Assembly: GCA_042408445.1 (NCBI GenBank)
Contig: JBHORC010000024.1
Coordinates: 44,092 to 108,091, forward strand
Direction: 5' to 3'
From: Chloroflexota bacterium
GTDB lineage: Bacteria > Chloroflexota > Limnocylindria > Limnocylindrales > CSP1-4
DNA length: 64,000 nt
Under the pieces are notes generated by a model. That model worked only from the letters and a program-made list of their open reading frames with translations, ran no database searches and was not told the DNA's origin. Numbering within the stretch: position 1 is the stretch's first letter; every line of letters begins with the position of its first letter. Positions 28,987 to 45,068 of this stretch are shown here, piece after piece. Made by a program: the position numbers and the translations under genes.

Positions 28987-30111
28987 ATGAAGGAGCTCCT
29001 GGACCAGCTGGCCGACTGGAACGGACACGGGATCGGTGCCGGGCGGGCCGTGGTCGTCCGGACGTTCGGCAGCGCCCCGCGGCCGGAAGGCGCGGTCCTG
29101 ATCCGGGCAGACGATGGACGGATCGCCGGATCGGTGAGCGGTGGCTGCGTCGAGGGCGCCGCCGCGACGGAGATCGAGCGGGCGCGGGCGGACGGCAACA
29201 GCCGGGTGATCCGCTACGGGATCAGCGACGAGGAGGCGTGGGACGTCGGCCTCGCCTGCGGCGGGACGATCGACGTCCTGATCGAGCCCGTGGTCCCCGT
29301 CGAGGCCGCCGAGGGCGCCGCGCTCCGTGGCCGCGCCGTCGCCACGATCCTGCCGCCGGACGCCCCGCCATCGGGCTTCGGACGTCACGAGCCGGGTGAC
29401 GGCGCACCACCCCAGCCGCGGATCGTCGTCACGCCGGACGGGACGCTCTCCCGTTCCCTCGGCTCGGCCGAGGCGGACGAGGCGTTGCGCCGTGCCGCGA
29501 GCGACGCGCTGCTCCGCGGGACGTCCCGGACCGTGGCCATCGGCGACCGACAGGTGTTCATCGAGGCGTTTCCCGTCCGGCCGCGGCTCGTGATCGTGGG
29601 TGCCGTGGAGGTGGCTCGCTCACTCGCGGTCTTCGCCAGGGAGCTGGGGTACGAGGTCGCCGTGATCGACGGGCGCGCGTCATTCGCGACCCCCGAGCGC
29701 TTTCCGCCGGACCGGGTCGACCGGCTCGTCGTGGGCTGGCCGGACGAGGTGGCGGACGAGATCGGACTCGGTCCGGACGACGCGGTCGCCGTCCTGACCC
29801 ACGACGTCAAGTTCGACGAGCCGGCGATCGTCGAGGCGCTCCGCCGCGGCTGCCGCTACGTCGGCGCGGTCGGATCGCGCAAGACGCAGGGCGATCGACG
29901 CGAGCGGCTCCGCGAGGCGGGCGTCAGCGAGGAGGAGCTCGGCCGGCTCCGCGGCCCGGTCGGTCTCGACCTGGGCGGGCGGAACCCGTCGGAGACGGCG
30001 CTGGCGATCATCGGCGAGGTCGTTGCGGACCGATACGGCGGCTCGGGGCTGCCGCTCCACGCGATCGCCCGCGGGCAGCTCGGGGAGGCACTCGCGCCGG
30101 CTGCGTCCTGA
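28987..30111 (+). CDS. XdhC/CoxI-family molybdoenzyme maturation factor (CoxF-like)
   Basis: XdhC_CoxI N-terminal domain (VVRTFGSAPRPEGA...VSGGCVE) plus Rossmann-like XdhC_C (IVGAVEVARSLAVFA). Confidence 0.7.
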   Translation: MKELLDQLADWNGHGIGAGRAVVVRTFGSAPRPEGAVLIRADDGRIAGSVSGGCVEGAAATEIERARADGNSRVIRYGISDEEAWDVGLACGGTIDVLIEPVVPVEAAEGAALRGRAVATILPPDAPPSGFGRHEPGDGAPPQPRIVVTPDGTLSRSLGSAEADEALRRAASDALLRGTSRTVAIGDRQVFIEAFPVRPRLVIVGAVEVARSLAVFARELGYEVAVIDGRASFATPERFPPDRVDRLVVGWPDEVADEIGLGPDDAVAVLTHDVKFDEPAIVEALRRGCRYVGAVGSRKTQGDRRERLREAGVSEEELGRLRGPVGLDLGGRNPSETALAIIGEVVADRYGGSGLPLHAIARGQLGEALAPAAS

Positions 30112-30257: not shown

Positions 30258-31304
30258 ATGGCCGTCGTGTCTCCACGCCCGCTTCCAGACCGCCCGACGG
30301 TCATCGTCCTGCGGGCGCTTCCCGGTCTGGGCGATTGGCTGTGTGCCGTCCCGACGCTCCGCGCGATCAAGGCGGCACGGCCGAATGCCCGGATTCACCT
30401 CGTCGCCCTCGCCTCAACCCGACCGCTGATCGGGCGGTTCACGGGGCTCGTCGATGGGTTCCACGTGTTCCCGGGCTGGCCGGGTCTGCCGGAGCAGCGC
30501 GTCGATGCCGCCGCGATCCCCGGGTTCCTTGCTGCGCTCCAGTCGCTCGACGCCGACCTCGCGATCCAGCTCCACGGGTCGGGCGAGACGACGAACGAGT
30601 TCGTCCAGCTCTTCGGCGCCCGGCATGTCGCGGGCTTCTACCGGGCCGGCGCCCGCTGCCCCGATCCGTCGCGGTTCCTCACGTGGCGCGACGAGGATCC
30701 GGAGGTGCGGCGGGGCCTGCGACTGCTGAGCCTTCTCGGGATCACCGACGGTAACGAGGAGCTGACCTTTCCGCTCGACCCGGCCGGCGCCGTCGACGCG
30801 CGCCTGCTGCTCGCCGAGGTCGGCGTCACGGAGCCATTCGTCGTCGTGCATCCCGGCGGCAGCCGGCCGGCCGCGCGATGGCGCTGGGACGGGTTCGCGC
30901 GGGTGGGGGGCGAGATGGCGGCGCTCGGCCGGCAGGTCGTCGTGACCGGCACCCGCGAGGAGGCGTCGCTGACGAGCGCGGTCGCGGCCGCGATCCCCGG
31001 TGCCGTCGATCTCGGCGGCCGGACCAGCCTCGATTCCCTCGGCTGGATCCTTCGCCAGGCGACGCTCGTGGTCGCCAACGACACCGGCGTCGCGCATCTC
31101 GCGGACGCCCTCGACGTCCCGAGCGTCGTCGTGTTCGCCGCGGACGACGGCAGCCGGGCCGCGCGCTGGGCGCCGCTCGACACGCGCCTCCACCAGGCTG
31201 TCGGTGGGTCGCCGGGAGCCGTCTCCGCACGTGCGCGGCGGCTGCTCCGACAGATCGAGCGAGGCGCGGGCAGCCGGACGCGACATCCCGGAGTGATGGC
31301 GTGA
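30258..31304 (+). CDS. GT9-family glycosyltransferase (ADP-heptose-dependent heptosyltransferase-like)
   Basis: N-terminal VIVLRALPGLGDWLCAVP and C-terminal NDTGVAHLADALDVPSVVVF motifs typical of WaaC/WaaF-like GT9. Confidence 0.8.
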   Translation: MAVVSPRPLPDRPTVIVLRALPGLGDWLCAVPTLRAIKAARPNARIHLVALASTRPLIGRFTGLVDGFHVFPGWPGLPEQRVDAAAIPGFLAALQSLDADLAIQLHGSGETTNEFVQLFGARHVAGFYRAGARCPDPSRFLTWRDEDPEVRRGLRLLSLLGITDGNEELTFPLDPAGAVDARLLLAEVGVTEPFVVVHPGGSRPAARWRWDGFARVGGEMAALGRQVVVTGTREEASLTSAVAAAIPGAVDLGGRTSLDSLGWILRQATLVVANDTGVAHLADALDVPSVVVFAADDGSRAARWAPLDTRLHQAVGGSPGAVSARARRLLRQIERGAGSRTRHPGVMA

Positions 31305-32368
31305 CGCCGTTCAAGGTGCTCACCTGGCATGTCCACGGGAGCTACCTGGACTCGCTCGCCCGGACCGGCCATGAGTTCTACATCCCGGTGTCCGATCCGC
31401 CGCGGGCGGGGTACGCGCCGCGCTGGCCGGAATGGGGCCCGAACGTGATCGAAGTCCCCGAGGCGGCGGTCCGGGATCTCGACGTCGACGTCGTGCTGTT
31501 CCAGTCGCGGGAGGCGTGGGAGACCGACCAGCACACGATCCTGTCGGCGGAGCAGCGCCGGCTGCCGCGGATGTACCTCGAGCACGATCCGCCGCGCGAG
31601 CACCCGACGGACACCCGCCACTGGGTTGCCGACCCGGACGTCCTCCTCGTCCAGGTCACCCATTTCAACGACCTGATGTGGGACGCCGAACCGACCCCGA
31701 CCCGGGTGATCGAGCACGGCGTCGCGGTGCCGGAGGCCGTCCGGTATGACGGGAGCCTCGAGCGAGGCATCGTCGTCATCAACGACCTCGCGACCCGGGG
31801 TCGCCGTCTCGGCGCGGACCTGTTCGTCGCAGCGCGACGGCAGGTGCCGCTCGATCTCGTCGGGATGAACGCGACGCGACTCGGCGGCCTGGGGGAGGTC
31901 CGCCGCCCGGACCTTGCCGCCTTCGAGGCCCGCTACCGCTTCTTCTTCAACCCGATCCGCTACACGAGCCTGGGACTCGGCCTGCTCGAGGCGATGATGA
32001 TCGGCATGCCGGTCGTCGCCTTCGCGACGACCGAGATCCCGGTCGTCATCGAGGACGGCGTGTCGGGGATCATCGCGACCGATCACGAGGTCCTCCTCGA
32101 CGGGATGCGCGCGCTGATCGCCGATCGCGACCTGGCGCGAGAGCTGGGCGCGGCCGCGCGACGGACGGCCCTCGAGCGGTTCTCGATCCCGCGCTTCGCC
32201 GCGGACTGGACCGCCGCGTTCGAGGACGTCACCGGTCGTCGTGCCGGAACCCGCCCCATCGCCATTGGCTGGTCCACCCCGTCGGACCGCCCGAACCGGC
32301 TGCCCGCGACGTCGCGCGACGGTCGGACGAGCGTGCCCCAGCCCCTGCACGTGGAGACCGCCTCATGA
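31301..32368 (+). CDS. GT4 (GT-B fold) glycosyltransferase
   Basis: GTGA start/stop overlap. C-terminal EAMMIGMPVVAFATTEIPVVIEDGVSG (E-X7-E-type motif). Confidence 0.7.
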   Translation: MTPFKVLTWHVHGSYLDSLARTGHEFYIPVSDPPRAGYAPRWPEWGPNVIEVPEAAVRDLDVDVVLFQSREAWETDQHTILSAEQRRLPRMYLEHDPPREHPTDTRHWVADPDVLLVQVTHFNDLMWDAEPTPTRVIEHGVAVPEAVRYDGSLERGIVVINDLATRGRRLGADLFVAARRQVPLDLVGMNATRLGGLGEVRRPDLAAFEARYRFFFNPIRYTSLGLGLLEAMMIGMPVVAFATTEIPVVIEDGVSGIIATDHEVLLDGMRALIADRDLARELGAAARRTALERFSIPRFAADWTAAFEDVTGRRAGTRPIAIGWSTPSDRPNRLPATSRDGRTSVPQPLHVETAS

Positions 32369-34350
32369 CGCGCCGCATCGCGATGATCTCGGAGCACGCG
32401 TCGCCCCTGGCGACGCTCGGCGGCGTCGATGCCGGCGGGCAGAACGTCTACGTCGCGCAGGTCGCACGCCATCTCGCCGCCGTCGGCGACCGCGTCGATG
32501 TCTTCACGCGGCGCGACGACCCGAACCTCCGCGAGACGGTCGAGCTGGCCCCGGGCGTCCGCGTCGTGCACGTTCCCGCCGGACCGCCGGAGCCAATCTC
32601 GAAGGAACAGCTCCTGCCGTACATGCCGGCGTTCAGCCAGTGGGTCCGCGAGTGGATCGAGCGCCGGCGCGGCTACGACCTGGTCCACGCCAACTTCTTC
32701 TACTCCGGGCTGGTCGCGGCCGAGCTGAAGGCGAGCCTCGGCCTGCCGTTCGTGATCACGTTCCACGCCCTCGGCCGGATCCGGCGGCAGTTCCACGGTG
32801 GCGGCGACGCGTTCCCGGACGAGCGGTTCGCGATCGAGGACCGGATCGTCGCCGAGGCGGACCGGGTCATCGCGGAGTGCCCGCAGGACGAGGAGGACCT
32901 GATCCGCCTCTACAACGCCGAGCCGTCGCGGATCACGATCGTTCCGTGCGGCTTCGACCCGTCCGAGTTCGAGCCGATGAGCCGGCCGCTGGCGCGTCTG
33001 GACCTCGGCCTGGATCCTGCCGAGCCGATCCTCCTCCAGCTCGGCCGGATGGTCCCGCGGAAGGGCGTCGACAACGTCATCCGCGCGGTCTCGCGTCTCG
33101 CGGACGAGCACGACCTCCGTGTCCGGCTCCTGGTCGTCGGCGGGCCGGACCGCGAGCCGGACATCAGCCGGGCACCGGAGCTCGCCCGGCTCACCGAGGT
33201 CGCTCGCAAGGAAGGCGTCGCCGATCGCGTCCAGTTCGTCGGCCGCCGCGACCGCTCGGAGCTGAAGACGTACTACAACGCGGCCGACATCTTCGTCTCG
33301 ACCCCTTGGTACGAGCCGTTCGGCATCACCCCCGTCGAGGCGATGGCCTGCGGCATCCCGGTCGTGGGATCACGCGTCGGCGGGATCAAGTTCAGCGTCC
33401 GCGACGGCGAGACCGGCTACCTCGTCCCCGCCGACGACCCGAGCGCCCTTGCCGAGCGGATCGCCCACCTCTATCGCCACCCGAAGCTCCTCTCCGTGTT
33501 CGGCCGTCAGGCGATCCGCCGGGCGAACGACCTGTTCACCTGGGAGCGGGTCGCGAACGGCCTCGCCGCGGTGTACGAGGACGTGCTCCTCGAGGGCCGG
33601 CTCGCCCGTCGGGATGAGGCCGAGCGACTGGCGAAGGTCGATCGCCGCTTCGAGGAGGCCATCGAGGCGCTCGTCCAGACGCGGCGCCGGTCGCGGGCCG
33701 CGATCGTCGAGGCGGCCGACGAGATCTGCCGGGCGCTCGCGCGGGACGGCAAGCTGCTGATCGCCGGGAACGGCGGGAGCGCGGCCGCTGCATCCCACTG
33801 GGCAGCCGAGTTCGTCGGGCGGTTCCTCGACCACGGTCGCCCCGGGCTCGCGGCGATCTGTCTCGGGACGGATCCATCGGTCGTCACCGCCTGGTCGAAC
33901 GACGTCGGCTTCGACGACGTCTTCGCCCGCCACGTCGAGGCGCTCGGCCGGCCGGGCGACGTGATGATCGGCCTGTCGACGAGCGGGCGGTCGCCGAACC
34001 TCGTCCGCGCGTTCGAGAAGGCCCATGCCCTGGGCCTTCGGACGATCGCGCTGCTCGGCGGCGACGGCGGCGACCTGCGAGCCCACGCGGACCAGGTCGT
34101 CCTCGTGCCGTCGAAGAACACGCAGCACATCCAGGAAGCGCACGACGTGATCGTTCACGTGCTGTGCGAGCTGGTGGAGCAGCGGCTCGTCGCCGCGGGC
34201 TGGTTCAAGCGGCAGACGGGCGGGACGAAGGCCGGGACCGCTGATCCCGGCGCCGAGGACGTGCAGACGCCGCGGCCGACCAGCCACCGAACCAGCACCT
34301 CCCGCGGACCGCGGCCGCGAACCCGCACCCGACAAGGAGTGATTTCGTGA
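32365..34350 (+). CDS. gmhA: Fusion protein: MshA-like GT4 glycosyltransferase (N-terminal) + sedoheptulose-7-phosphate isomerase GmhA (C-terminal SIS domain)
   Basis: N-terminal RIAMISEHASPLATLGGVDAGGQNVYV (MshA-type). C-terminal LLIAGNGGSAAAASHWAAEFVGRF...DVMIGLSTSGRSPNLV...IQEAHDVIVHVLCELVE (GmhA SIS signature). Confidence 0.85.
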   Translation: MTRRIAMISEHASPLATLGGVDAGGQNVYVAQVARHLAAVGDRVDVFTRRDDPNLRETVELAPGVRVVHVPAGPPEPISKEQLLPYMPAFSQWVREWIERRRGYDLVHANFFYSGLVAAELKASLGLPFVITFHALGRIRRQFHGGGDAFPDERFAIEDRIVAEADRVIAECPQDEEDLIRLYNAEPSRITIVPCGFDPSEFEPMSRPLARLDLGLDPAEPILLQLGRMVPRKGVDNVIRAVSRLADEHDLRVRLLVVGGPDREPDISRAPELARLTEVARKEGVADRVQFVGRRDRSELKTYYNAADIFVSTPWYEPFGITPVEAMACGIPVVGSRVGGIKFSVRDGETGYLVPADDPSALAERIAHLYRHPKLLSVFGRQAIRRANDLFTWERVANGLAAVYEDVLLEGRLARRDEAERLAKVDRRFEEAIEALVQTRRRSRAAIVEAADEICRALARDGKLLIAGNGGSAAAASHWAAEFVGRFLDHGRPGLAAICLGTDPSVVTAWSNDVGFDDVFARHVEALGRPGDVMIGLSTSGRSPNLVRAFEKAHALGLRTIALLGGDGGDLRAHADQVVLVPSKNTQHIQEAHDVIVHVLCELVEQRLVAAGWFKRQTGGTKAGTADPGAEDVQTPRPTSHRTSTSRGPRPRTRTRQGVIS

Positions 34351-35198
34351 CCCTGACCGATACCCCTCGTCCCACCCGACGCCCGGCATCGGCCGGCGGC
34401 TCGGCCACGGCCAGCGAGGTCGAGCGCGGGAGCGATGGCGCGACCGCTCGCGACGCGTGGGCCGACGGCCTCGCCGGGCATCTCGTCGGACAGGTGGCGC
34501 TCGTCACGGGTGGCGGCAGCGGTCTCGGCCGGGCGACCTGCGACGTGCTTGGCGCGGCCGGGATGCGCGTCCTGGTCGGCGACATTTCCGCGGCCGGACG
34601 GGAGGAGACGGCGGCATCGATCCTCGGCGCCGGCGGCGACGCGGAGCCGATTGCCCTGGACGTCACCGATCCCGGCTCTGCGACGGCCGGCGTCGCTGCC
34701 GCCGTGGATCGCTGGGGCCGGCTCGACGTCCTCGTGAACAACGCGGGGATCGACCGGACGGCACCGTTCGACGAGCTCGAGGTCGACGACTGGGATCGGA
34801 TCCTCGCGGTGAATCTCCGCGGCCCGGTCGTCATGACGAAGGCGGCCCTCCCCGCGATGCGACAGGCGGGCCGCGGCCACATCGTGAACATCACCTCGAC
34901 CGCGGCCAAGCGGGCGTGGGAGAACGCAAGCGCGTACCACGCCACGAAGTGGGGCCTGCTCGGGCTGAGCCACGCCCTGCACACGGAGGCACGGCGCGAG
35001 GGGATCAAGGTCACGGCTGTTGTCTGTGGCGGGATGCGGACGCCGTTCCTGCTCGATCGCTTTCCGGACCTCGATCCGGGGCTGCTCCAGGACCCGCGAA
35101 CGGTCGCCGAGACGATCCGGTTCGCCCTGTCGCTGCCGGACGAATCCGTGATCCCCGAGATCACGGTGTTGCCGATGCGCGAGACCTCGTGGCCATGA
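34347..35198 (+). CDS. Classical short-chain dehydrogenase/reductase (SDR)
   Basis: TGGGSGLG cofactor motif, NNAG, YHATK catalytic Y-x3-K. Confidence 0.75.
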   Translation: MTLTDTPRPTRRPASAGGSATASEVERGSDGATARDAWADGLAGHLVGQVALVTGGGSGLGRATCDVLGAAGMRVLVGDISAAGREETAASILGAGGDAEPIALDVTDPGSATAGVAAAVDRWGRLDVLVNNAGIDRTAPFDELEVDDWDRILAVNLRGPVVMTKAALPAMRQAGRGHIVNITSTAAKRAWENASAYHATKWGLLGLSHALHTEARREGIKVTAVVCGGMRTPFLLDRFPDLDPGLLQDPRTVAETIRFALSLPDESVIPEITVLPMRETSWP

Positions 35199-35875
35199 CC
35201 CGACTCGCGCAGCGGGGGAGTCGCCCCGCGGCCCCGGCCTCATCGTCCCCCCGGACCGTGCTGTTCGTGGACAAGGACGGGACGCTCATCGAGGACCTCC
35301 CGTACAACGTCGACCCGCGTCGCGTGCGGTTCGCGCCCGGCGCGCGGGAAGCCGTTCGCCTGCTCGGCGCGGCGGGGGTCGAGCTGGCCGTCGTCACGAA
35401 CCAGTCGGGCGTCGCGCGCGGCTACTTCTCGACGGCGGACCTCCGCCGGCTCGGGGAGCACCTGGCGGAGGAGATCGAGGCCCTCGGCGGGCGGCTTGCC
35501 GGCTTCTACGCGTGCCCCCACCTGCCCGACGGATCCGTGCGGGCGTTCTCGACGAGCTGCGACTGTCGCAAGCCACGGCCCGGCTTGCTCCTCCGCGCGT
35601 TCGCCGAGCTCGGCGTCGACCCGGGCCGTTCGTGGTTCGTCGGCGACACGTGGATGGACGTCGCCGCCGGGCACGCCGCCGGGTGCCGGAGCATCCTCGT
35701 GGGCCCGGAGTGGCGCGACCGATCCACCCATCCGGCCGGCATCGAGCCCGACGCCGCCGTGCCGGATCTCCTCGCGGCCGCCCGGATCGTGCTCGCGGAC
35801 CACGCTCGGGGATCCGAGGCAGCTGGTCGGCCGGTCGAGAAGCGACCCCCCGTGGGACGGGCGGTGTCGGCATGA
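35195..35875 (+). CDS. gmhB: D-glycero-D-manno-heptose 1,7-bisphosphate phosphatase
   Basis: VLFVDKDGTLI (HAD motif I), VVTNQSG, CDCRKP zinc motif, FVGDTWMD. Confidence 0.85.
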   Translation: MTRLAQRGSRPAAPASSSPRTVLFVDKDGTLIEDLPYNVDPRRVRFAPGAREAVRLLGAAGVELAVVTNQSGVARGYFSTADLRRLGEHLAEEIEALGGRLAGFYACPHLPDGSVRAFSTSCDCRKPRPGLLLRAFAELGVDPGRSWFVGDTWMDVAAGHAAGCRSILVGPEWRDRSTHPAGIEPDAAVPDLLAAARIVLADHARGSEAAGRPVEKRPPVGRAVSA

Positions 35876-37356
35876 CGACGGGCCTGCTCGCTGCCGTCGA
35901 CGCGATGCAGGGTCGGCGGATCCTCGTCATCGGCGAAGCGATGCTCGACAGCTACCTCCGCGGCCATGCCGACCGGCTCAGCCGTGAGGCGCCGGTCCCC
36001 GTCGTTGCGATGGACCGCCGCGTGGATTCCGCCGGCGGAGCGGCGAACAGCGCGGCGAATCTCGCCGCGCTGGGCGCCAACGTGACGCTGCTGTCCGTGG
36101 TCGGCCTGGACGAGGAGGGCGAGCGGCTGTGCTCGGCGCTGGTACAAGCCGGCCTCGACACGACCGGCGTGCTGCGCGACCCGCAGCGACGAACCCTGAC
36201 GAAGCAGCGCGTCGTCGCCGACGGCCAGGTGCTGCTCCGCTTCGACAGCGGCACGGTCGATGGCATCTCGGCGACGCTCGAGGACGAGCTGATCGACCGG
36301 ATCGAGGCGCTTGTTCCGGAGATGGATGCCGTGCTGGTCTCGGACTACGCGTACGGCGTCGTCGGCCCGCGGATCGACACCGCGCTCGCCGAGTCGTTCG
36401 CGCGGCGGCGGCCCGTCGTCGTCGTCGATGCCCGCGACCCGTCGCGCCACGCCCGCCTCGCGCCGACCGCCACGAAGCCGAACTACGGCGAGGCGGTCCG
36501 GCTGCTCGGCGAGCAGGAGCTCGAGGGATCCGAGGCTCGCGCCCGCCAGATCGTCGCGGGCGCCGAGACGCTCCATCGCCGGACCGGCTCCGCCGTCGTC
36601 GCGGTGACCCTCGATCGGGAAGGCGCGGTCATCCTCGAGCAGGGACGCCAGCCGTACCGGACATACGCGCGTCCCACGGCGGATCAGCAGGCATGCGGCG
36701 CCGGCGACACGTACAGCGGCGTTCTCGCCCTCGGGCTCGCCGCGGGCGCGCCGACCCCGGTCGCGGCGGAGCTCGCAGCGGCGGCCGCCGGCGTCGTCGT
36801 CCAGAAGGACGGGACGGCGATCTGCACCGCGGCCGACCTCGCGGCAGCCGTCGGCCGATCCGAGAAGCGACTGGAGTCGCTCGACGAGGTCCGGGCACGA
36901 GTGGCGCTCCTTCGCGAGCAGGGCCGCCGGATCGTCTTCACCAACGGCTGCTTCGACATCCTCCACCGCGGTCATGTCACCTATCTGTCACGGGCCAAGG
37001 CGCTCGGCGATGTGCTGCTCGTCGGCGTGAACTCCGACGCGAGCGTCCGCGGGCTGAAGGGCGCCGACCGGCCGATCAACCGCCTCGAGGACCGTCTCAG
37101 CGTTCTCGAGGCGCTCTCCTGCATCGATCACGTCATCCCGTTCGAGGCGGCAACGCCGGCCGCCCTGATCGCCGCGATCCGGCCGGACGTCTTCGTGAAG
37201 GGCGGCGACTATCGCCGCGAGACGTTGCCCGAGGCGCCACTCGTCGAGCGCCTCGGCGGGACGGTCCGGATCCTGTCGTACGTCCAGGACTACTCGACCA
37301 CGAGCCTCATCCACCGTGTCCGGGCGGTCGACCAGACCGAGGCGTTGCGGCAATGA
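35872..37356 (+). CDS. hldE: Bifunctional D-beta-D-heptose 7-phosphate kinase / D-beta-D-heptose 1-phosphate adenylyltransferase
   Basis: PfkB kinase N-domain (ILVIGEAMLDSYL...EAPVPVV, GAGDTY). Cytidylyltransferase-fold C-domain (TNGCFDILHRGHVTYL...VGVNSDASVRGLKG). Confidence 0.9.
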   Translation: MTTGLLAAVDAMQGRRILVIGEAMLDSYLRGHADRLSREAPVPVVAMDRRVDSAGGAANSAANLAALGANVTLLSVVGLDEEGERLCSALVQAGLDTTGVLRDPQRRTLTKQRVVADGQVLLRFDSGTVDGISATLEDELIDRIEALVPEMDAVLVSDYAYGVVGPRIDTALAESFARRRPVVVVDARDPSRHARLAPTATKPNYGEAVRLLGEQELEGSEARARQIVAGAETLHRRTGSAVVAVTLDREGAVILEQGRQPYRTYARPTADQQACGAGDTYSGVLALGLAAGAPTPVAAELAAAAAGVVVQKDGTAICTAADLAAAVGRSEKRLESLDEVRARVALLREQGRRIVFTNGCFDILHRGHVTYLSRAKALGDVLLVGVNSDASVRGLKGADRPINRLEDRLSVLEALSCIDHVIPFEAATPAALIAAIRPDVFVKGGDYRRETLPEAPLVERLGGTVRILSYVQDYSTTSLIHRVRAVDQTEALRQ

Positions 37357-38519
37357 CCGGCGCAGGACTCACCGGCGACTGGGCCGCGGCGCGGAGGATC
37401 CTCGTCGTCCGGCTCGACGCCCTCGGCGACGTGCTGATGACGACGCCCGCGTTCCGCGCCCTCGCCAGTAGCCACCCCGACGTCCGCCTCACGCTGCTCA
37501 CGTCGCGCGCCGGCGCGACCGTCGCCCCGATGCTCCCCGAGATCGGATCCGTGATCGTCCATGACGTCCCGTGGATGAAGACCGAGCCGCCCGACGGCTC
37601 GGGCAGCGGTGGTCGCGCCGACCGCGACCTCATCGATCGCCTCCGCGCGGAGCGCTTCGACGCCGCCGTGATCTTCACCGTCCACAGCCAGAGCGCATTG
37701 CCCGCAGCGCTGCTGTGCCACCTGGCCGACATCCCGCGGCGGCTTGCCCATGCCCGCGAGAATCCCTACCGGCTCCTGACGGACTGGGTCGCCGACCCGG
37801 AGCCGGATGGCCCGACCCGCCACGAGGTCCGGCGTCAGCTCGATCTGGTCGCGACGGTCGGCGCGGCGATCGACGACGACCACCTCTCGGTCCGGGTCCC
37901 ACCGGCAGCCGCCCGAGCCGTTCGGGCCCGTCTCGATGCTCTCGGCGTCCGCCTCGATCGGCCGTGGGCCGTTCTCGCGCCGGGGGCGAGCGCCTCGTCG
38001 CGGCGCTATCCGCCGGCCTCGTACCGGGCCGTCGCCGCGACCCTTGCCCGGGATCATGGCTGGCAGATCGTCGTGACCGGCGGACGGGACGAGGCGGGGC
38101 TCGTGTCGGAGGTCACTGCGGGCCTCGGCCGTCGCGTGATCCCGCTCGCGGGGCAGCTCGATGTCCCGGAGCTCGCGGCGCTTCTCGCGATGACGCCCGT
38201 CCTGATCGGCAACAACTCGGGACCGGCTCACCTCGCGGCGGCCGTGGGGACGCCCGTCGTCGACGTGTACGCGCTCACGAACCTCCAGCACGCGCCGTGG
38301 GGCGTCGTCTCGCGCGTCCTGGCGACGGACGTCCCGTGCAAGGGCTGCCGGAAGAGCGTCTGCCCGATCGGCGACCAGGCCTGCATCCGCGGGGTGGATC
38401 CCGCGGCCGTCGTCTCGGCCGCCATCGAGCTCGTGGCGCCGCACCCCGCCGCCGCGCGGATGCCGGCCGGGATCCTCGTGCCTGACCCGCGGTACGCCCG
38501 ATCGGCCGGTCCCGGGTGA
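37353..38519 (+). CDS. GT9-family heptosyltransferase-like glycosyltransferase (second copy)
   Basis: ILVVRLDALGDVLMTTPAFRAL, NNSGPAHLAAAVGTPVVDVY, Cys-rich CKGCRKSVCP insert typical of WaaF-like enzymes. Confidence 0.8.
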   Translation: MTGAGLTGDWAAARRILVVRLDALGDVLMTTPAFRALASSHPDVRLTLLTSRAGATVAPMLPEIGSVIVHDVPWMKTEPPDGSGSGGRADRDLIDRLRAERFDAAVIFTVHSQSALPAALLCHLADIPRRLAHARENPYRLLTDWVADPEPDGPTRHEVRRQLDLVATVGAAIDDDHLSVRVPPAAARAVRARLDALGVRLDRPWAVLAPGASASSRRYPPASYRAVAATLARDHGWQIVVTGGRDEAGLVSEVTAGLGRRVIPLAGQLDVPELAALLAMTPVLIGNNSGPAHLAAAVGTPVVDVYALTNLQHAPWGVVSRVLATDVPCKGCRKSVCPIGDQACIRGVDPAAVVSAAIELVAPHPAAARMPAGILVPDPRYARSAGPG

Positions 38520-38523
38520 TGCG

Positions 38524-39336
38524 GTGACCGACGACCAGCTGGACCAGGTCGACGTCCTGATCCCGACCTACCGCCGGCCGACCGCCCTCGCGGTGACCCT
38601 CGCGGGTCTCGCCGCCCAGACGCGGTCGTCGCTCCGGATCGTCGTCTCCAGCCAGACCCCGGAGACCGAACCGGTCCTCGGGCCGGAGGCCGAGGCCGTG
38701 GTTCGCGTCCTGCGGGCACAGGGTCGACCCGTCGAGGTCGGCCGGCACCTGCCACGGCGGGGCATGGCGGAGCATCGGCAGTCCCTGCTCGATCGCGCGC
38801 GAGCGCCGTACGCGCTGTTCCTCGACGACGACGTCCTCATCGAGCCGGATCTGGTCGACCGCCTCGTGCGCGCGATCGGCCGGGCGGGCTGCGGCTTCGT
38901 CGGCTCGGCCGTCGTCGGCTTGAGCTACGAATCGGACGTCCGGCCGCACGAGCAGCAGGTCGAGTTCTGGGATGGCCCGGTGACGCCCGAGTCGGTCGTC
39001 CCGGGCACGCCCGCCTGGGAGCGTCACCGCCTCCACAACGCCGCGAACCTGCACCACCTCCGGCGCCGGCTGTCCCCGGGCGATCGGCTCTACCGCGTCG
39101 CATGGGTCGGCGGCTGCGTGCTGTTCGACACGGAGAAGCTGCGGGACGCCGGCGGGTTCGGGTTCTGGCGACAGCTCCCGGAGCAGCACGCGGGCGAGGA
39201 CGTCCTCGCCGAGCTGAACGTGCTGCGCACGTACGGGGGCGCCGGCCTGTTCCCGTCCGGTGCCTACCACCTGGAGCTCCCGACGACGATCCCGAACCGG
39301 GAGCACGACGCCCCGTTCCTTCTGCAGCCCGCCTGA
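38524..39336 (+). CDS. GT2-family (GT-A fold) glycosyltransferase
   Basis: VDVLIPTYRRPTAL and DxD motif FLDDDV. GTG start. Confidence 0.7.
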   Translation: MTDDQLDQVDVLIPTYRRPTALAVTLAGLAAQTRSSLRIVVSSQTPETEPVLGPEAEAVVRVLRAQGRPVEVGRHLPRRGMAEHRQSLLDRARAPYALFLDDDVLIEPDLVDRLVRAIGRAGCGFVGSAVVGLSYESDVRPHEQQVEFWDGPVTPESVVPGTPAWERHRLHNAANLHHLRRRLSPGDRLYRVAWVGGCVLFDTEKLRDAGGFGFWRQLPEQHAGEDVLAELNVLRTYGGAGLFPSGAYHLELPTTIPNREHDAPFLLQPA

Positions 39337-39367
39337 CGGACGCCGAGCACGAACCAAGGGAGACACG

Positions 39368-39931
39368 ATGGCGACCGAGACCAAGACGCGACGCGAATCC
39401 AGCACCCGCAGTCGATCCGGCGGGTCCGGAAGCGGCTCGAGGGCCAGCTCCGGCAGCCGCAATCGGCAGAGCGGCAGCGGCGGCAACGGCAGCAGCGGCG
39501 GCGGCGGCCGGGGACGCGACACGAACGCCAACGCCGACGACCGGACGTTCCTCGAGCGGTTTGGCGACCAGCTCTCGCCCTCGACCCGCCGCGCCCGGTG
39601 GATCCATTCGCCGGACGAGCGACCCGAGCGAAAGGGCCAGACGCTGGCGACCCGCTCCCCGGAGGTGGTCCGTGCCTGGGCGGAGGAGCGCGACGGCCGA
39701 CCGGCGACTGCGACGCGTGGCAAGGACGGGCGGCCGCGAACGCTCCGGATCAGCTTCGCGACCGGCGACGACAGCGGCAGCAGGCGGCGGCGGCTCGAGG
39801 AGATCAGCTGGGACGAGTGGCTCGGGGTCTTCACCGAGCGGAACCTCGTCTTCATCTACCAGCAGCAGCGACGGGACGGGCGCCAGAGCAACTTCTTCCG
39901 GCTCGACAGCCCGGACCGGGAGGACGGCTGA
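39368..39931 (+). CDS. Small basic protein with Ser/Gly/Arg-rich disordered N-terminus and conserved-looking C-terminal domain (function unknown)
   Basis: SD AAGGGAGA before ATG. N-terminal 60 aa low complexity (SRSGGSGSGSRASSGSRNRQSGSGGNGSSGGGG). C-terminal RTLRISFATGDD...ISWDEWLGVFTERNLVFIY. Confidence 0.4.
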   Translation: MATETKTRRESSTRSRSGGSGSGSRASSGSRNRQSGSGGNGSSGGGGRGRDTNANADDRTFLERFGDQLSPSTRRARWIHSPDERPERKGQTLATRSPEVVRAWAEERDGRPATATRGKDGRPRTLRISFATGDDSGSRRRRLEEISWDEWLGVFTERNLVFIYQQQRRDGRQSNFFRLDSPDREDG

Positions 39932-40998
39932 TCGCGGTCGCGGGGGGCGGACCACGGATCCCGAACGTCGAGCGGATCGCCGTCCTCCGCGCCAACGCTC
40001 TCGGTGACCTCGTCGTCGCCCTGCCCGCGCTCGAGGCGCTGCGAGCCGCCTACCCGGACGCCGAGATCACGCTCCTCGGCCGGCAGCACCACGTCGCGCT
40101 GCTCGGAAGCCGCGATGGTCCCGTCGATCGGGTGATCCCGCTGCCGGACGGCGCGATCGGCGACGAAGGGCGCGAGGATCCGGACCTGGATCGGGACGCG
40201 CTCCTGGACGATCTCGCCGCGCGCGGCTTCGACCTGGCGATCCAGCTTCACGGCGGCGGCCGCAACTCGAACCGGTTCGTGCGGGGGCTCGGCGCGCGGG
40301 TCACGGCCGGCAGCCGGACGCCGGACGCGCCCCAGCTCGATCGGTGGATCCCGTACGAGCACTACCAGTGGGAGATCGCCCGGTATCTCGAGGTCGTCGG
40401 CCTGGTCGGGGCGGCGCCGGTTGCGATCGAGCCTCGGCTCGACGTCACGGACCATGACCGGGCGGCGCTGGACCGCGAGCTGCCGGGCGTCCGCGGCAGC
40501 CACCCGATCGTGATCCATCCCGGGGCGAGCGATGCCCGGCGGCGCTGGCCGGTCGAGCGGTTCATCGAGGTCGTCACGGAGCTCCGCAGGCTCGGCCGCG
40601 AGGTCGTGGTCACGGGCACCCGCGACGAGGCCCACCTCGTCGAGCCGATCGTCGAATCCGCGACGGAGGGCACGACGGCGGCGCTGACGCTCTCCCTGCC
40701 GGCCCTGCTCGCGCTCGTCGCGAGCGCCGATCTCGTCGTGTCGAACGACACCGGACCGCTCCACCTCGCGATCGCGGCCGGGACGCCGACCGTGGGTCTG
40801 TTCTGGGTCGGCAACCTGATCAACGCCGGGCCGTTCTCGCGCCGCCGCCACCGTCCCTTGCTGTCATGGCGGATGCTCTGCCCGGTCTGTGGAGCGGACG
40901 CGTCCGTCGAGCGCTGCGAGCACAACCCCTCGTTCATCGCGGAGATCCCGGTCCGGTCCGTGATCGATGCGGCCACCGACCTGCTCCGCGTACGATGA
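39928..40998 (+). CDS. GT9-family heptosyltransferase-like glycosyltransferase (third copy), apparently lacking a canonical start codon
   Basis: RIAVLRANALGDLVVALPALEAL, SNDTGPLHLAIAAGTPTVGLF, C-x2-C-x8-C tail. Only in-frame candidate start near the expected N-terminus is CTG at 39928, overlapping the upstream TGA. Confidence 0.7.
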   Translation: MIAVAGGGPRIPNVERIAVLRANALGDLVVALPALEALRAAYPDAEITLLGRQHHVALLGSRDGPVDRVIPLPDGAIGDEGREDPDLDRDALLDDLAARGFDLAIQLHGGGRNSNRFVRGLGARVTAGSRTPDAPQLDRWIPYEHYQWEIARYLEVVGLVGAAPVAIEPRLDVTDHDRAALDRELPGVRGSHPIVIHPGASDARRRWPVERFIEVVTELRRLGREVVVTGTRDEAHLVEPIVESATEGTTAALTLSLPALLALVASADLVVSNDTGPLHLAIAAGTPTVGLFWVGNLINAGPFSRRRHRPLLSWRMLCPVCGADASVERCEHNPSFIAEIPVRSVIDAATDLLRVR

Positions 40999-42929
40999 CC
41001 CCACCGACGCCGAGCCTCCCGAGACGCCGCGCCCCGGACCGCGAGCCCCTGATCGCGGTGATCATGCCGACGTACGCCCAGGCCGCGTTCCTCCCGCGGG
41101 CGGTGTCGAGCCTCCTCGCCCAGACCGAGACACGCTGGCAGCTGTGCATCGTCGACGACGCGTCGCCGGACGAGACCGCGGCCCTCGTGACGCCGTACCT
41201 CGCCGACCCCCGGATCCGCTACATCCGCCGTCCGTCGAACGGTGGCGTCGGCCGCGCGCTCAACGACGGGCTGGACGCGACCCAGGCGCCGCTCGTCGCC
41301 TATCTGCCCTCGGACGACGTCCTGCACGCGGACCATCTGGCGACCCTGCTCGCGACGCTCGGCGACGATCCGGCGGTCGTCATGGCGACGACGGGCGTTC
41401 GCCACCACTACAACCGGGATGCCCTCGACACCGTCGACGGCTGGCCGCAGCTCGTCCAGGTCCTCCATCGGCGCGTTCCCGAGCGCTGGGTCGAGCGCGA
41501 CGAGCTCGTCACCGACGATCTCGACCGGATGTACTGGTCTGCCGTCCGGCGTCACGGCGACGTCCGCCAGACGGGTCGGGTGACGTGCGAGTGGGTCCAT
41601 CACCCCGACCAGCTGACGCACCTGATCCGCGAGCCGCTCGGCGGCATCAATCCGTTCCGCCAGCGGTTCGGCATCAGCCATCCGCTCCGGTTCGAGACGA
41701 CCGTCGGCGATCCGATCGACGAGGTCGCCCGATACCGGCGGTTCCGCGACCGCCCGCCGACGCCGATGGCACCGGACGGGCTCCGGATCCTGCTGGTCGG
41801 CGAGCTCTCCTACAACCCGGAGCGGATCCTCGCGCTCGAGGAACGAGGCCACCGGCTGTTCGGGCTCTGGACGCCGGATCCCGCCTGGTACACGGCCGTC
41901 GGCCCGGTCCCGTTCGGTCACGTCCAGGACGTCCCGAGCCACGACTGGGAGACCGCGGTCCGCGAGCTCCGGCCGGACGTGATCTACGCGCTCCTGAACT
42001 GGCACGCCGTGCCGTTCGCCGCCGAGGTCCGCCGGCGCCTCGCCGACATCCCGTTCGTCTGGCACTTCAAGGAAGGTCCATTCATCTGCCGCGAGCGCGG
42101 GACGTGGAGCGACCTCGTCGAGCTGACGGACCGGTCGGCCGGCGTCATCCACTCGAGCCGCGAGATGGCCGACTGGTTCGCGACGTTCCTGCCCGACGCG
42201 AACGATCCGCGCCGCAGCCTGGTGCTCGACGGCGACCTGCCGAAGGCCGAGTGGTTCGAGGGGATCCGGCCGTCGCCGCGACTCTCGGCGGCCGACGGGG
42301 AGATCCACACCGTCGTCCCGGGCCGCCCGATCGGGCTGCATCCCGAGGACGTCGCCGCGCTCGCGGGGGAGGGGATCCATCTCCACTTCCACGGCCAGTT
42401 CACCCACGGCCAGTGGCGCGAGTGGATCGAGCGGAGTCGCAGGCTCGCGCCACGTCACCTCCATCTCCACCCCACCGCGGGCCAGGAGGAGTGGGTCGCG
42501 GTCTTCTCCCAGTACGACGCCGGCTGGCTGCACGTCTTCGAGTCGACGAACGGCGGCGACCTGGCTGCGGCGAGCTGGGACGACCTGAATCTCCCCGCCC
42601 GGATGGCGACGCTCGCGGCGGCCGGCCTGCCGATGATCCAGCGGCGCAACGACGGCTCGACCGTGGCCATCCAGACCGTCGCGCGGGAGCTGGGGATCGG
42701 CGTGTTCTTCGAGCGGCCGGACGAGCTCGCGGCGACCCTCCGCGACGAGGTGGAGATGCGGCGCGCGCGGGCCAACGTCACCCGCCACCAGGCGGAGTTC
42801 ACGTTCGATCACCACGCCAACCGGTTGATCGAGTTCTTCCGGCGGGTGGTCGACCGGCCCGCGTCGTCCTCCGAGCTGTCCCTGGGCGCGATCGCATCGC
42901 CCGCGGCGGGCGCGACCGCCGCGTTCTGA
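40994..42929 (+). CDS. Dual-domain glycosyltransferase: N-terminal GT2 (GT-A) plus C-terminal GT-B-like Rossmann domains
   Basis: N-terminal LIAVIMPTYAQAAFL...CIVDDASPDE...LPSDD (GT2). C-terminal approx. 400 aa with Rossmann-like ILLVGELSYNPE and second-lobe pattern. Confidence 0.6.
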
Positions 42930-42980
42930 GCGGCGGCTGTGCGCGGACTTCTGGTCGCCATTGCCCGATATCGTTCGCGG

Positions 42981-43625
42981 ATGACGGCTGACGACGCAGC
43001 ACGCGCCACCCGCACCGCCGGCGTCGTCCTCGCCGCGGGCGCGGGCTCCCGGTTCGGTGGCGGGAAGCTGCTGGCGGAGCTCGACGGCGAGCCGATCCTC
43101 CGGCACGTCGTCTCCGCAGCGGTCGCCGCCGGCCTCGACCCGATCGTCGTCGTCGAGCCGCCCGACGGCAGCGTGGGCGATCTGGATCTCGGGCCCGTTC
43201 GACGGATCGTCAATCCCCACCCCGAGGAGGGCCTCTCGAGCTCCGTTCGGCTCGGCCTCCGTGGGCTCCTCGACGACGAGGACGTGGAACAGGCCGTGAT
43301 CCTGCCTGGCGACCAGCCGCGGGTTCGGCCCTCGACGATCCGCGCGCTGGTCGACGCATCGGACGAATCGCCGCGGACGCCGTTCGTCGTCGCCCGCCAC
43401 GACGCGGACCGGACGCCCAACCCGGTGCTCGCGCGCCGTTCGATCTGGCGACTCGCCGACGAGATCGCGGGCGATCGCGGCTTCGGGCCCGTGCTCGGTG
43501 CGCACCCGGAGCTCGTCCGCGAGGTCCGGATCGAGGGCGCGAACCCGGACGTCGACACGGCCGAGGACCTGCGCCGGCTGTCGGGGCCGATCGAACCCGC
43601 CGCCGGCGGGCGCGACGTATCGTGA
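42981..43625 (+). CDS. MobA-like nucleotidyltransferase (candidate molybdenum cofactor cytidylyltransferase MocA, or a sugar-phosphate nucleotidyltransferase)
   Basis: GVVLAAGAGSRFGGGK P-loop-like motif of the MobA/MocA/IspD NTP_transf_3 family. Confidence 0.55.
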   Translation: MTADDAARATRTAGVVLAAGAGSRFGGGKLLAELDGEPILRHVVSAAVAAGLDPIVVVEPPDGSVGDLDLGPVRRIVNPHPEEGLSSSVRLGLRGLLDDEDVEQAVILPGDQPRVRPSTIRALVDASDESPRTPFVVARHDADRTPNPVLARRSIWRLADEIAGDRGFGPVLGAHPELVREVRIEGANPDVDTAEDLRRLSGPIEPAAGGRDVS

Positions 43626-43630
43626 GGCGA

Positions 43631-44478
43631 TGACCACCGCCAGCGCCGCTCAGCTCGAGGCTGCCTGGGCCGAACGCGTTCGGGCCAATCGCGAGCAGGT
43701 CGACCGCGTTCGGGAGCTGCCGGACCGCGACTTCTACGCTCCCGTCTCGTCGCTGTTCATCGCCGACGCCCACCGCCGGGGCGAGGAAGCGCTCGACGCG
43801 CTCCTGGCGATCACCGAGTCGGGCGATCGGTGGCTCGACATCGGCGCAGGCGCCGGCCGCTATGCACTGCCGCTCGCGCTGCGCGTGGCCGAGGTGATCG
43901 CGGTCGAGCCGTCGGCCTCGATGCGCAATGCCCTGCGAACCGGCAAGGCCGAGCACGGGCTCGCCAATCTGCGGATCGTGCCGGCCGCATGGCCGGCGGC
44001 GCTGGAGCAGCTGGGGACGCCGCCGGTCGCCGATGTCGCGTTCGTCGCCCACGTCGGGTACGACATCGAGGAGATCGGGCCGTTCCTCGACGCGATGGAG
44101 CAGGCGGCATCACGCCTCTGCGTCGCGATGCTGACGGACCGCAGTCCGGCGTCGGTCGCGGACCCGTTCTGGCCACTGGTCCACGAGATGGAGCGCGTCC
44201 CGCTGCCGGCGCTCCCGGAGCTCGCGGAGCTGCTCCGCGCGCGCGGCCGCCGGACGGAGATCCAGCGCGTCGAGCGGGCGCCGCGGACGTTCGACTCCTT
44301 CGACGGGCTCGCGACCTTCATCCGCCGCCAGCTGTGGATCCGCGACGACGGCGAGAAGGAGCAGCGGTTCCGGATCGCGCTCGCGGCGATGGCCCGCGAA
44401 CGCGACGACGACGGCTGGACGCTCGCGACGCCGCCGGTCGGCGCGATCGGCATCCTGACCTGGGAACCGCTCGGCTGA
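43631..44478 (+). CDS. Class I SAM-dependent methyltransferase
   Basis: Motif I WLDIGAGAGRYALPLA, followed by acidic residue motif VIAVEPS. Confidence 0.65.
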
Positions 44479-44493
44479 CAGAGGAGGAGTCGC

Positions 44494-44994
44494 GTGTCCA
44501 TCGCCGATGCCGTCGCCGGCGCGACCGTCTACCTGACCGACCATCCCGATGAGGCCCGCTACCGCGACTCGGTCGCGACGGCGCGGATCACCTCGGGGCT
44601 TCGCGCCGAGGTCCGGGGTCCGGGCGGCGAAACCGTCGCGGCCGACATGCCGACCGGCATCGGTGGCACCGCCTCCGCCCCGTCGCCAGGCTGGCTGATG
44701 CGAGCCGCGGCCGCCTCGTGCGTCGCTGCGCTCATCGCCATTCGGGCTGCGGCCACGGGCGTGGCGCATGGTGCGATCGAGGTCGCGGTGGACAGCGAGT
44801 CCGACGACCGCGGCATTCTCGGCCTGGACGAGGCGATCGACGCCGGCGCGCTGTCGATGGCGGTCGTCGTCTCCGTCGACGGGGTCGCGGATCACGAGGC
44901 TCGATCCCTCGTCGACTGGGCGGTCGCGCATTGCCCGGTCACGGACACGATCGCGAGGGCGGTCCCGATCGCCGCCGAGGTTCGCGCAGCGTAG
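44494..44994 (+). CDS. OsmC/Ohr-family protein
   Basis: approx. 165 aa with OsmC-like pattern including conserved Cys pair (ASCVAAL...AHCPV). SD GAGGAGGAG before GTG. Confidence 0.7.
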   Translation: MSIADAVAGATVYLTDHPDEARYRDSVATARITSGLRAEVRGPGGETVAADMPTGIGGTASAPSPGWLMRAAAASCVAALIAIRAAATGVAHGAIEVAVDSESDDRGILGLDEAIDAGALSMAVVVSVDGVADHEARSLVDWAVAHCPVTDTIARAVPIAAEVRAA

Positions 44995-45038
44995 GTTCGC
45001 CAGTCGGCTCGGCTCGGGGCTGGCCCGTGTTTCGGGCC

Positions 45039-45068
45039 TTGACATGTGACTCGACGGTCACATAACAT
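45039..45068 (+). promoter_or_regulatory. Putative promoter with operator palindrome: TTGACA, TGTGAC-tcgacg-GTCACA, TAACAT
   Basis: -35 TTGACA and -10-like TAACAT separated by 18 nt containing a perfect 6-6-6 inverted repeat. ATG of the ArsR-AHSA1 gene 7 nt downstream (near-leaderless). Confidence 0.5.

Follow-up and report, generated by a model that had tools for sequence, protein, structure and literature searches.

A conserved cassette of ADP-heptose synthesis and GT9 glycosyltransferase genes in a Chloroflexota bacterium: a candidate lipopolysaccharide-independent route to heptose oligosaccharides

Gene content of the locus and its host

Heptose and the GT9 glycosyltransferases are textbook markers of the Gram-negative lipopolysaccharide (LPS) core. 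We analyzed a 64,000-nucleotide stretch of DNA (contig JBHORC010000024.1, positions 44,092 to 108,091; hereafter the window, in whose positions all coordinates are given), which carries a run of thirteen genes, g1 to g13, including candidates for ADP-heptose synthesis and three GT9 genes. The window has a G+C content of 72%, and genes were called from third-position GC (GC3 frame analysis). Plus-strand coding was unbroken across 30258–44478 in 13 frame segments, and independent gene predictions on two Logan contigs carrying the same DNA gave identical products for g1–g5, g7–g9, g11 and g13. Frames and independent calls together confirmed the thirteen open reading frames (ORFs) that a first-pass annotation of this DNA had listed. 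The same annotation described a tight operon in which nearly all junctions overlap; exact 4-nt ATGA or GTGA overlaps were indeed found, at seven of the twelve gene junctions, so that the overlaps stand and "nearly all" does not. A promoter and terminator scan returned a single promoter-like site, located downstream of the unit. The genes are as follows.

30258..31304, plus strand: g1, GT9 of the "upstream" type, 348 amino acids (aa); Pfam Glyco_transf_9, 76.8 bits against a cutoff of 22
31301..32368, plus strand: g2, GT4-like GT-B glycosyltransferase ("GT4c"), 355 aa; Glyco_trans_1_4 and Glycos_transf_1 at residues 182–301, only the C-terminal half being recognized
32365..34350, plus strand: g3, fusion of an SPS/MshA-type GT4 domain (1 to about 410) and a GmhA domain (about 435–610), 661 aa; from Pfam and PDB matches
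34347..35198, plus strand: g4, classical short-chain dehydrogenase/reductase (SDR), 283 aa; Pfam adh_short, 190 bits
35195..35875, plus strand: g5, predicted GmhB-type HAD-IIIA heptose-1,7-bisphosphate 7-phosphatase, 226 aa; PRK08942 is the best NCBIfam match
35872..37356, plus strand: g6, predicted bifunctional HldE, 494 aa; PfkB and CTP_transf_like domains
37353..38519, plus strand: g7, GT9 of the type that follows HldE in almost all cassettes, 388 aa; Pfam, 104.5 bits against a cutoff of 22
38524..39336, plus strand: g8, accessory GT2, 270 aa; Glycos_transf_2, 45 bits, with a DDD motif
39368..39931, plus strand: g9, accessory conserved protein without a family, 187 aa; no Pfam or NCBIfam match
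39817..40998, plus strand: g10, accessory GT9 with an uncertain start; Pfam GT9, 88.3 bits against a cutoff of 22
40995..42929, plus strand: g11, accessory GT2 (20 to about 155) with a large C-terminal region that is possibly GT-B, 644 aa; Glycos_transf_2, 97.7 bits
42939..43625, plus strand: g12, MocA-like molybdenum (Mo)-cofactor nucleotidyltransferase, alternative start at 42981; NTP_transf_3, 113 bits
43630..44478, plus strand: g13, S-adenosylmethionine-dependent methyltransferase; Methyltransf_23, 29.4 bits against a cutoff of 27

Pfam and NCBIfam profiles and the motifs agreed with the annotation of a GmhA fusion, a GmhB with the CDCRKP motif and a bifunctional HldE, and the profile check left the GT9 assignment of all three genes standing together with that of HldE. 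Profile matches likewise bore out the GT4, GT2, classical SDR, methyltransferase and MobA-like assignments, that of g13 just above the cutoff. For g11, described as a GT2 and GT-B dual enzyme, the GT2 half was upheld and the GT-B half was not (Glyco_trans_1_2, 21.5 bits, below the cutoff of 25); its PDB matches were confined to the GT2 domain, and orthologs were present in L084, L101 and L163 (such labels denote members of a set of 172 fetched loci onto which the window proteins were mapped).

The host was assigned from the relatives of two proteins. At its left end, the window carries a fragment of the housekeeping protein CarB, whose named relatives, at 80–86% identity, belong to Candidatus Limnocylindrales or Chloroflexota, apart from a few names that evidently reflect mis-binning; Actinobacteria were not among them. 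Named homologs of the g3 fusion, at 64–76% identity, are Chloroflexota, Limnocylindrales and Dehalococcoidia, with single Methylomirabilota and Terriglobales labels. These relatives place the host in the Chloroflexota, class Limnocylindria, whose genomes have a mean GC of 68.9% (PMC10608941), and not among the actinobacteria as first proposed. The two markers on which that proposal leaned gave way as well: the tandem-GNAT protein (56138–57463, minus strand) reached 54 bits against an MshD cutoff of 163 and is MshD-like in architecture only, and the g3 GT4 domain reached 313 bits against an MshA cutoff of 462. An actinobacterial origin was thus ruled out by the CarB and g3 relatives and the MshD score.

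Conservation of the cassette and predicted functions of its enzymes

Co-occurrence was counted over the 172 fetched loci, taking only loci with enough flanking sequence. The core order is GT9-GT4c-GT4/GmhA-SDR-GmhB-HldE-GT9. The gene directly upstream of the fusion was GT4c in 56 of 59 loci, and a GT9 lay further upstream in 35 of 40; downstream of the fusion gene came the SDR (59/63), GmhB (41/47) and HldE (33/40), and a GT9 followed HldE in 34 of 36. A GT2 was present in 13 of 31 loci, and g9, g10 and g11 are accessory, occurring mostly in close relatives. Full-length fusions fall into more than 120 clusters at 90% identity and, among the top 150 representatives, into about 8–10 clusters at 50% identity. 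In a scan of genome contigs, the relatives among the matches listed were at most 57% identical. Loci with the cassette also bore the labels Chloroflexia, Dehalococcoidia, Cyanobacteria, Gemmataceae and Chitinophaga/Bacteroidota, and a partial cassette was seen under Actinomycetota; these phylum labels of distant cassettes are those of metagenome-assembled genomes, and some may be wrong. The core is therefore widespread, and its gene order and content are preserved in dozens of loci from several phyla. The locus had been called an island. Because the GC of the region (0.726) equals that of its flanks (0.725 and 0.71) and the core recurs in this way in metagenomic loci, the glycosyl block is not a foreign island in the sense of horizontal transfer, and its native GC rules out a recent acquisition.

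The g3 product joins a glycosyltransferase to a sugar-phosphate isomerase domain. Its GT4 domain aligned over the whole length with two PDB entries, the T. elongatus sucrose-phosphate synthase (SPS) TeSPS (6KIH, 264 bits) and Corynebacterium glutamicum MshA (CgMshA, 3C48, 225 bits), the acceptors of both being soluble and phosphorylated, and reached only about 50 bits with the lipid-acceptor enzymes PimB and WaaG. The phosphate of the acceptor is bound in TeSPS by Arg105 and Arg178 and UDP by Arg249, Arg253 and Glu339, and two further residues, His158 and Glu331, are essential (PMC7264703). The equivalents in g3 are K80 and R154 for the acceptor-phosphate ligands, H134 and E317 for the catalytic pair, and R228, R232 and E325 for the UDP ligands, and all seven were invariant in 121 sequences (g3 and 120 homologs). 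The likeness to SPS and MshA, together with the retention of both acceptor-phosphate residues, suggests that the acceptor of the GT4 domain is probably a sugar or cyclitol that is soluble and phosphorylated. Its fusion partner GmhA both consumes and yields a 7-phospho-sugar, so that a 7-phospho-heptose or heptulose would be the obvious acceptor candidate. The presence of a HAD phosphatase in the cassette echoes the two-step synthase/phosphatase logic of sucrose synthesis. On the other hand, g3 differs from SPS and MshA in that it falls below both family cutoffs (for the SPS glycosyltransferase domain, TIGR02472, 123.7 bits against 576), is fused to GmhA and is embedded among heptosyltransferase-type genes.

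The activities for nucleotide-heptose synthesis could be assigned to the C-terminal domain of g3 and to g5 and g6. GmhA structures in the PDB matched the SIS domain of g3 at about 160 bits. The GmhA zinc ligands H64, E68, Q175 and H183 are completely conserved among orthologues (PMC5705639); H478, E482, Q590 and H598 of g3 align with them and are kept in 114–121 of 121 family members. The g5 protein has the DxDxT nucleophile motif as DKDGT and a CPH...CDCRKP zinc loop, and passed the HAD-IIIA model (105 against 44.6) as well as a histidinol-phosphatase domain model. The g6 protein matched the HldE model PRK11316 end to end (residues 10–485 to model positions 6–473 of 475) with a whole-protein score of 376, below the cutoff of 521, while its adenylyltransferase domain scored above the cutoff of TIGR02199 (198.6 against 181.5). 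Five positions before its STT motif, g6 has Tyr and not Arg; by the published STTR5 rule for the nucleotide specificity of heptose adenylyltransferases (Tang et al. 2024, as summarized in PMC11461863), it is predicted to give ADP rather than CDP or UDP activation. The cassette is without an HldD-type epimerase, g4 not being an HldD-type extended SDR, so that D,D-heptose is the likely donor form. Homology and intact motifs thus support a nucleotide-heptose pathway, in which the GmhA domain of g3 would convert sedoheptulose-7-phosphate to the 7-phosphate of D-glycero-D-manno-heptose, the kinase domain of HldE would form the 1,7-bisphosphate, and GmhB would take off the 7-phosphate.

All three GT9 proteins, g1, g7 and g10, keep the LGD Asp that aligns with WaaC Asp13, which we take to be the N-terminal catalytic Asp of the family. 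None reached the equivalog cutoff of an LPS heptosyltransferase; the nearest was g7 with heptosyltransferase II (129.1 against 134.6), the other scores being 55–112 against cutoffs of 135–569, and g1, which has LGD and NDTG..H motifs, was far below the cutoffs for heptosyltransferases I, II and III. A PDB-wide phmmer search with the three proteins returned WaaC, WaaF and 3tov alone and no TibC-type match, with E = 8e-12 for g7 against WaaF (1psw) and E = 5e-17 for g10 against 3tov, aligned from chain residue 9. The kinship of the three with WaaC and WaaF is only a distant one. The g7 protein has a donor motif NNSG..H, with Asn where WaaC has Asp261, and the g7-type form N-N-(T/S)-(G/A)-x-x-H was present in 37 of the 40 hits in which the motif was found (12 further hits were without it), whereas g1- and g10-type GT9 proteins, WaaC and WaaF keep the Asp (N-D-(T/S)-G).

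The start of g10 requires care. The protein carries LGD, RRRWP and NDTG..H motifs, and there is no ATG, GTG or TTG where the GT9 N-domain begins (about 39928–39960). The options are GTG at 39817, with a 115-nt overlap with g9, or CTG/ATC at 39928–39931, overlapping the g9 stop; the L085 ortholog aligns from window position 39958, and an automatic call at 40132 cuts the GT9 fold and loses the catalytic LGD motif. Orthologs of g10 are confined to close relatives. Among the other genes, g2 had weak PDB matches to GlgM, TarM and BshA, and g4 has the motifs TGGGSGLG, NNAG and YHATK. We propose that the GT4 domain of g3 would prime the pathway by adding a sugar to a soluble phosphorylated primer, that g2 and the two core GT9s, plus here the third GT9 and the two GT2s, would extend the primer, and that the invariably linked g4 SDR would modify the primer or one of the sugars.

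The small Ser/Gly/Arg-rich protein of the first-pass annotation is g9, and its composition was as described (Arg 18%, Ser 13%, Gly 13%). It consists of a conserved core of about 130 aa with 30 invariant columns and a variable S/G/R-rich tail, the least conserved part. Its 353 homologs are all labelled hypothetical and, wherever named, come from Chloroflexota or Thermomicrobiales, and a confident structure model (predicted local distance difference test above 90 in the core) gave no significant fold match among PDB structures. The order GT2-g9-GT9 occurs in the window, L084 and L092, and not in L091, where a g9 homolog is found without any glycosyltransferase. As g9 is also missing from most cassettes, it was ruled out as an obligatory part of the system. 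In L091 (Thermomicrobiales; 7376–10426), the g9-like gene lies directly after a STAND-TPR-GerE regulator.

The 3′ boundary of the unit and the Cox/Xdh neighbourhood

The first-pass annotation had joined all thirteen genes into one unit. In L082, L084 and L085, whose fusion proteins are 70–73% identical to g3, the gene order is CoxS-CoxL-CoxM-MoCF-[GT9-GT4c-GT4/GmhA-SDR-GmhB-HldE-GT9-...], followed 3′ of the cassette by CoxD-CoxE-XdhC-(NTP_transf_3+methyltransferase). In these relatives, the homolog of g12 and g13 is one fused protein of 468–470 aa that comes after XdhC (in L082 from 21602, in L085 from 21524) and is set apart from the glycosyl genes, g13 corresponding to its C-terminal half. 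The window has the same backbone, with Cox/Xdh-type genes at 18977–30111 and 42939–52547, but its glycosyl block comes after XdhC: the cassette lies between MoCF and CoxD in L082, L084, L085 and L086 and between XdhC and MocA in the window, where a STAND NTPase-TPR gene (24121–26538) sits at the site at which the relatives carry the heptose cassette. This comparison indicates a local rearrangement within conserved synteny. In addition, the best NCBIfam matches of g12 were MocA/YgfJ (100, below the cutoff of 186) and then PucB, and its closest PDB entries were MobA/MocA-related proteins. We therefore assign g12 and g13, by homology, to the maturation of Cox/Xdh molybdo-enzymes, and the glycan unit to the 11 genes g1–g11 (30258–42929).

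The XdhC-linked fusion of the relatives and the MocA matches argue against a sugar nucleotidyltransferase role for g12 and against glycan methylation by g13. With both genes outside the unit, the methylated product and the nucleotidyltransferase role in glycan synthesis that had been proposed are without support. The fusion would imply a functional link of Mo-cofactor nucleotidylation with some methylation. A functional coupling of the heptose cassette itself to carbon monoxide dehydrogenase (CODH) or the Mo cofactor was also ruled out, because the Cox linkage is lineage-specific: only three of 39 informative loci had any Cox gene, and distant cassettes adjoin methylmalonyl-CoA mutase, cytochrome oxidase and other unrelated genes.

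A complete aerobic CODH-type set is present at 46770–52547 (CoxM, CoxS, CoxL, XdhC-YHS, CoxG). Its large subunit (48514–50910) passed the NCBIfam aerobic CODH equivalog (1212 against 991 bits), and a second large subunit (19390–22059) failed it at 740 bits, a pattern that points to a single true CODH in the genome, the other enzyme being a paralogous Mo-hydroxylase. At the right end of the window, a TPR protein (62326–63999) has an N-terminal match to an adenylate-cyclase (LipJ) model.

Candidate product of the cassette and alternative explanations

The absence of lipid A and 3-deoxy-D-manno-oct-2-ulosonic acid (Kdo) context noted earlier was confirmed: no Lpx, Kds, WaaA or outer-membrane family occurred among the about 46 annotated genes of the window. 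Flanking genes were surveyed in a pooled Pfam census of 90 ORFs beside about 38 cassettes, in which no Kdo, Lpx, Waa or outer-membrane gene was found. The only recurrent families there were NodU/CmcH-type carbamoyltransferases (10 ORFs, in L100–L168; others adjoin the cassette in L009 and L089) and extra GT2s (10 ORFs), with no recurrent exporter, flippase, polymerase, ligase or polyprenyl-phosphate transferase. No transmembrane segment was predicted in any protein of the 13-gene region. Reports of phyla without the genes for LPS are few, and Chloroflexi are one of these phyla (PMC5007114; also PMC8793728, PMC10608941). We favour the reading, at a probability of roughly 0.45, that g1–g11 form a conserved LPS-independent operon for the cytoplasmic assembly of a heptose oligosaccharide on a phosphorylated sugar primer. 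Assembly would be cytoplasmic because there are no membrane segments and no linked exporter, and the product would be a heptose-containing oligosaccharide or glycoconjugate. A bolder form, which we consider unlikely, is that the cassette makes an unknown class of soluble heptose glycosides, in which the SPS-like domain would glycosylate sedoheptulose-7-phosphate or heptose-7-phosphate, followed by GT9 heptosylation and, in some lineages, carbamoylation, to give an intracellular oligosaccharide.

Several observations weigh against the favoured reading. In donor synthesis, three assignments fall below curated cutoffs, namely the GmhA domain of g3 (TIGR00441, 173 against 209; PRK13936, 180 against 276), g5 (PRK08942 GmhB, 131 bits against 178) and the kinase domain of g6 (237 against 345). 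In place of the GmhA channel residue D61, g3 has Ala (residue 475, window 33787–33789), which is why the D61A mutant structure 5lu7 was the top PDB hit; the D61A mutant of the Burkholderia enzyme has 6% of its activity left (PMC5705639). Across the fusion family, the equivalent position is variable, being E, D, A or Q. As for the transferases, the donor and acceptor specificities of every one are read from sequence, and ADP-heptose as the GT9 donor is argued solely by co-location with HldE. The GT9 family is not limited to heptosyl transfer. Because Asn replaces Asp261, the g7-type GT9 may not use ADP-heptose and may bind a different donor or use a different mechanism. A phospholipid or polyprenyl-phosphate acceptor could also be held through its phosphate by the conserved Lys and Arg of g3. 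Soluble or peripheral enzymes make the LPS core too, and MsbA, encoded at another site, flips it; since that flippase is also unlinked, an unlinked exporter is no proof of a cytoplasmic end-product. Finally, the accessory carbamoyltransferase and PIG-L genes of some loci mirror LPS-core decoration: the L089 flank also has a PIG-L, a radical SAM/SPASM enzyme and a methyltransferase, and the Pseudomonas LPS-core cluster includes WapO and the PIG-L gene PA5002, its HepII being 7-O-carbamoylated (PMC8005017).

These last points bear on the strongest alternative, an LPS-core-like heptose oligosaccharide built on an anchor other than lipid A, such as a glycolipid, a phosphatidylinositol-type lipid or polyprenyl phosphate. 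Assembly would take place on the cytoplasmic face; unlinked machinery would then flip the product and might join it to the wall or S-layer. Characterized GT9 enzymes use a lipid-anchored acceptor, LPS-core exporters are likewise unlinked, and GT9, GT4 and GT2 genes together with carbamoyltransferases (L009, L089) and PIG-L (L089) resemble the Pseudomonas core clusters. An ABC-2 permease and ATPase pair (58269–60323, minus strand) that could conceivably export a glycan lies about 14 kb downstream of the cassette, and it is unlinked to the cassette in all other loci examined. Against such an anchor, the priming GT4 is nearer to SPS and MshA than to PimB and WaaG, the flanks of the roughly 38 cassettes have no recurrent flippase, ligase, polymerase or polyprenyl-phosphate transferase, the proteins of the region are without membrane segments, and no heptose-containing Chloroflexota envelope polymer was found in the searchable literature. 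We regard this alternative as possible but rather doubtful.

The assembly of a soluble oligosaccharide also has to be weighed against a biosynthetic cluster for a specialized small-molecule glycoside. In Streptomyces, a host without LPS, the septacidin (SepB/L/C) and hygromycin B (HygP) pathways are fed with ADP-heptose made from sedoheptulose-7-phosphate (PMC10221265, PMC9978623), a soluble phosphorylated acceptor fits a small molecule, and L089 and L002 have tailoring-type genes (carbamoyltransferase, radical SAM/SPASM, PIG-L, methyltransferase and a major facilitator superfamily transporter). However, those clusters are sporadic, combine an aglycone with tailoring enzymes and have no multiple GT9s, whereas the cassette is broadly distributed, of native GC, conserved in its core over dozens of loci and several phyla, and made up nearly entirely of glycosyltransferases. 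Tailoring genes are found in a minority of loci, and the window is without non-ribosomal peptide synthetase, polyketide synthase, cyclitol or nucleoside synthesis, resistance or cluster-regulator genes, which makes this explanation improbable.

Protein heptosylation of the AAH/TibC (BAHT) type, with g9 or another protein as the acceptor, would share with the cassette an ADP-heptose-dependent glycosylation outside the LPS core. Such enzymes are established in E. coli (cited in PMC11461863), and in three contexts g9, whose tail is rich in Ser and Gly, is flanked by a GT2 gene on one side and a GT9 gene on the other. We consider this quite improbable, as the searches with g1, g7 and g10 matched none of the solved TibC-type enzymes in sequence, the tail is the part of g9 under least constraint in sequence, g9 is absent from most cassettes and stands without a glycosyltransferase in L091, and no secreted or autotransporter-like target is linked.

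The comparison with the LPS inner core itself is the closest in gene content. The GmhA-HldE-GmhB set with WaaC, WaaF and WaaQ (in Pseudomonas also WaaG and WapO) has the same four activities or families, a bifunctional HldE, and several GT9s with the WaaC-type LGD Asp accompanied by GT4s, and some cassette relatives share the NodU-type carbamoyltransferase and PIG-L seen in Pseudomonas (PMC8005017). In contrast, the cassette has an obligatory SDR and the GmhA-GT4 fusion, is without Kdo or lipid A genes and an HldD epimerase, misses the heptosyltransferase I–III cutoffs, and has Asn at WaaC Asp261 in its most conserved, g7-type GT9. That the locus is an ordinary LPS inner-core operon, with lipid A, Kdo and outer-membrane genes elsewhere in the genome, is thus most improbable: GT9, HldE, GmhA and GmhB are hallmark LPS-core genes and some cassette loci are labelled as LPS-producing phyla, but the Limnocylindria host belongs to a phylum for which a lack of LPS genes is reported (PMC5007114, PMC8793728), the window and the flanks of the about 38 cassettes surveyed are free of Kdo, Lpx, Waa and outer-membrane genes, every LPS heptosyltransferase equivalog cutoff was missed, and LPS-core clusters contain nothing that corresponds to the SPS/MshA-type fusion or the SDR.

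Searches of the literature for the cassette, for GmhA-glycosyltransferase fusions, for Chloroflexi heptosyltransferases and for GT9 in monoderms found nothing relevant, which supports, as far as the searchable literature shows, the view that the product is undescribed. The first-pass proposal of a glycan of undescribed structure held to that extent; its placement at the cell surface or on protein, which is possible, found no linked export, lipid-carrier or acceptor-protein function. The accompanying statement that ADP-heptose outside LPS is known only from rare cases is outdated, as heptose-nucleotide biosynthetic enzymes are reported across kingdoms, with functional synthesis well beyond LPS producers (Tang et al., Science 2024, as summarized in PMC11461863). 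That work, in the same summary, concerns donor synthesis and immune agonism and not the downstream transferases. Heptose pathways outside LPS producers are thus no longer surprising in themselves; what is new here is a probably LPS-independent ADP-heptose/GT9 assembly in which GmhA is fused to a GT4 of the SPS/MshA type and an SDR is linked.

The heptose and GT9 markers of the LPS core are united here in a tightly conserved cassette, in a phylum without LPS, and several other phyla have this cassette too. The annotation of the locus is corrected to 11 rather than 13 genes and to Chloroflexota rather than Actinobacteria, and gains a specific, testable acceptor hypothesis. Identification of the product would give a new heptose-containing glycan or glycoside, a role for GT9 enzymes outside the LPS core and the sense of the GT4-GmhA fusion and the SDR. 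It would also bear on whether monoderm-type lineages retain their LPS-core enzymes as relics from a diderm ancestor or have them as a pathway of independent origin. If the product is a soluble glycoside, it could serve as a stress protectant, storage compound or signal, common to abundant uncultured Chloroflexota and some Cyanobacteria, Planctomycetota and Bacteroidota, and it would be the first non-lipid, non-protein acceptor for GT9 enzymes, made in a manner analogous to sucrose-6-phosphate. If the predicted pathway is real, abundant soil and freshwater Chloroflexota would be potential environmental sources of the ALPK1 agonist ADP-heptose.

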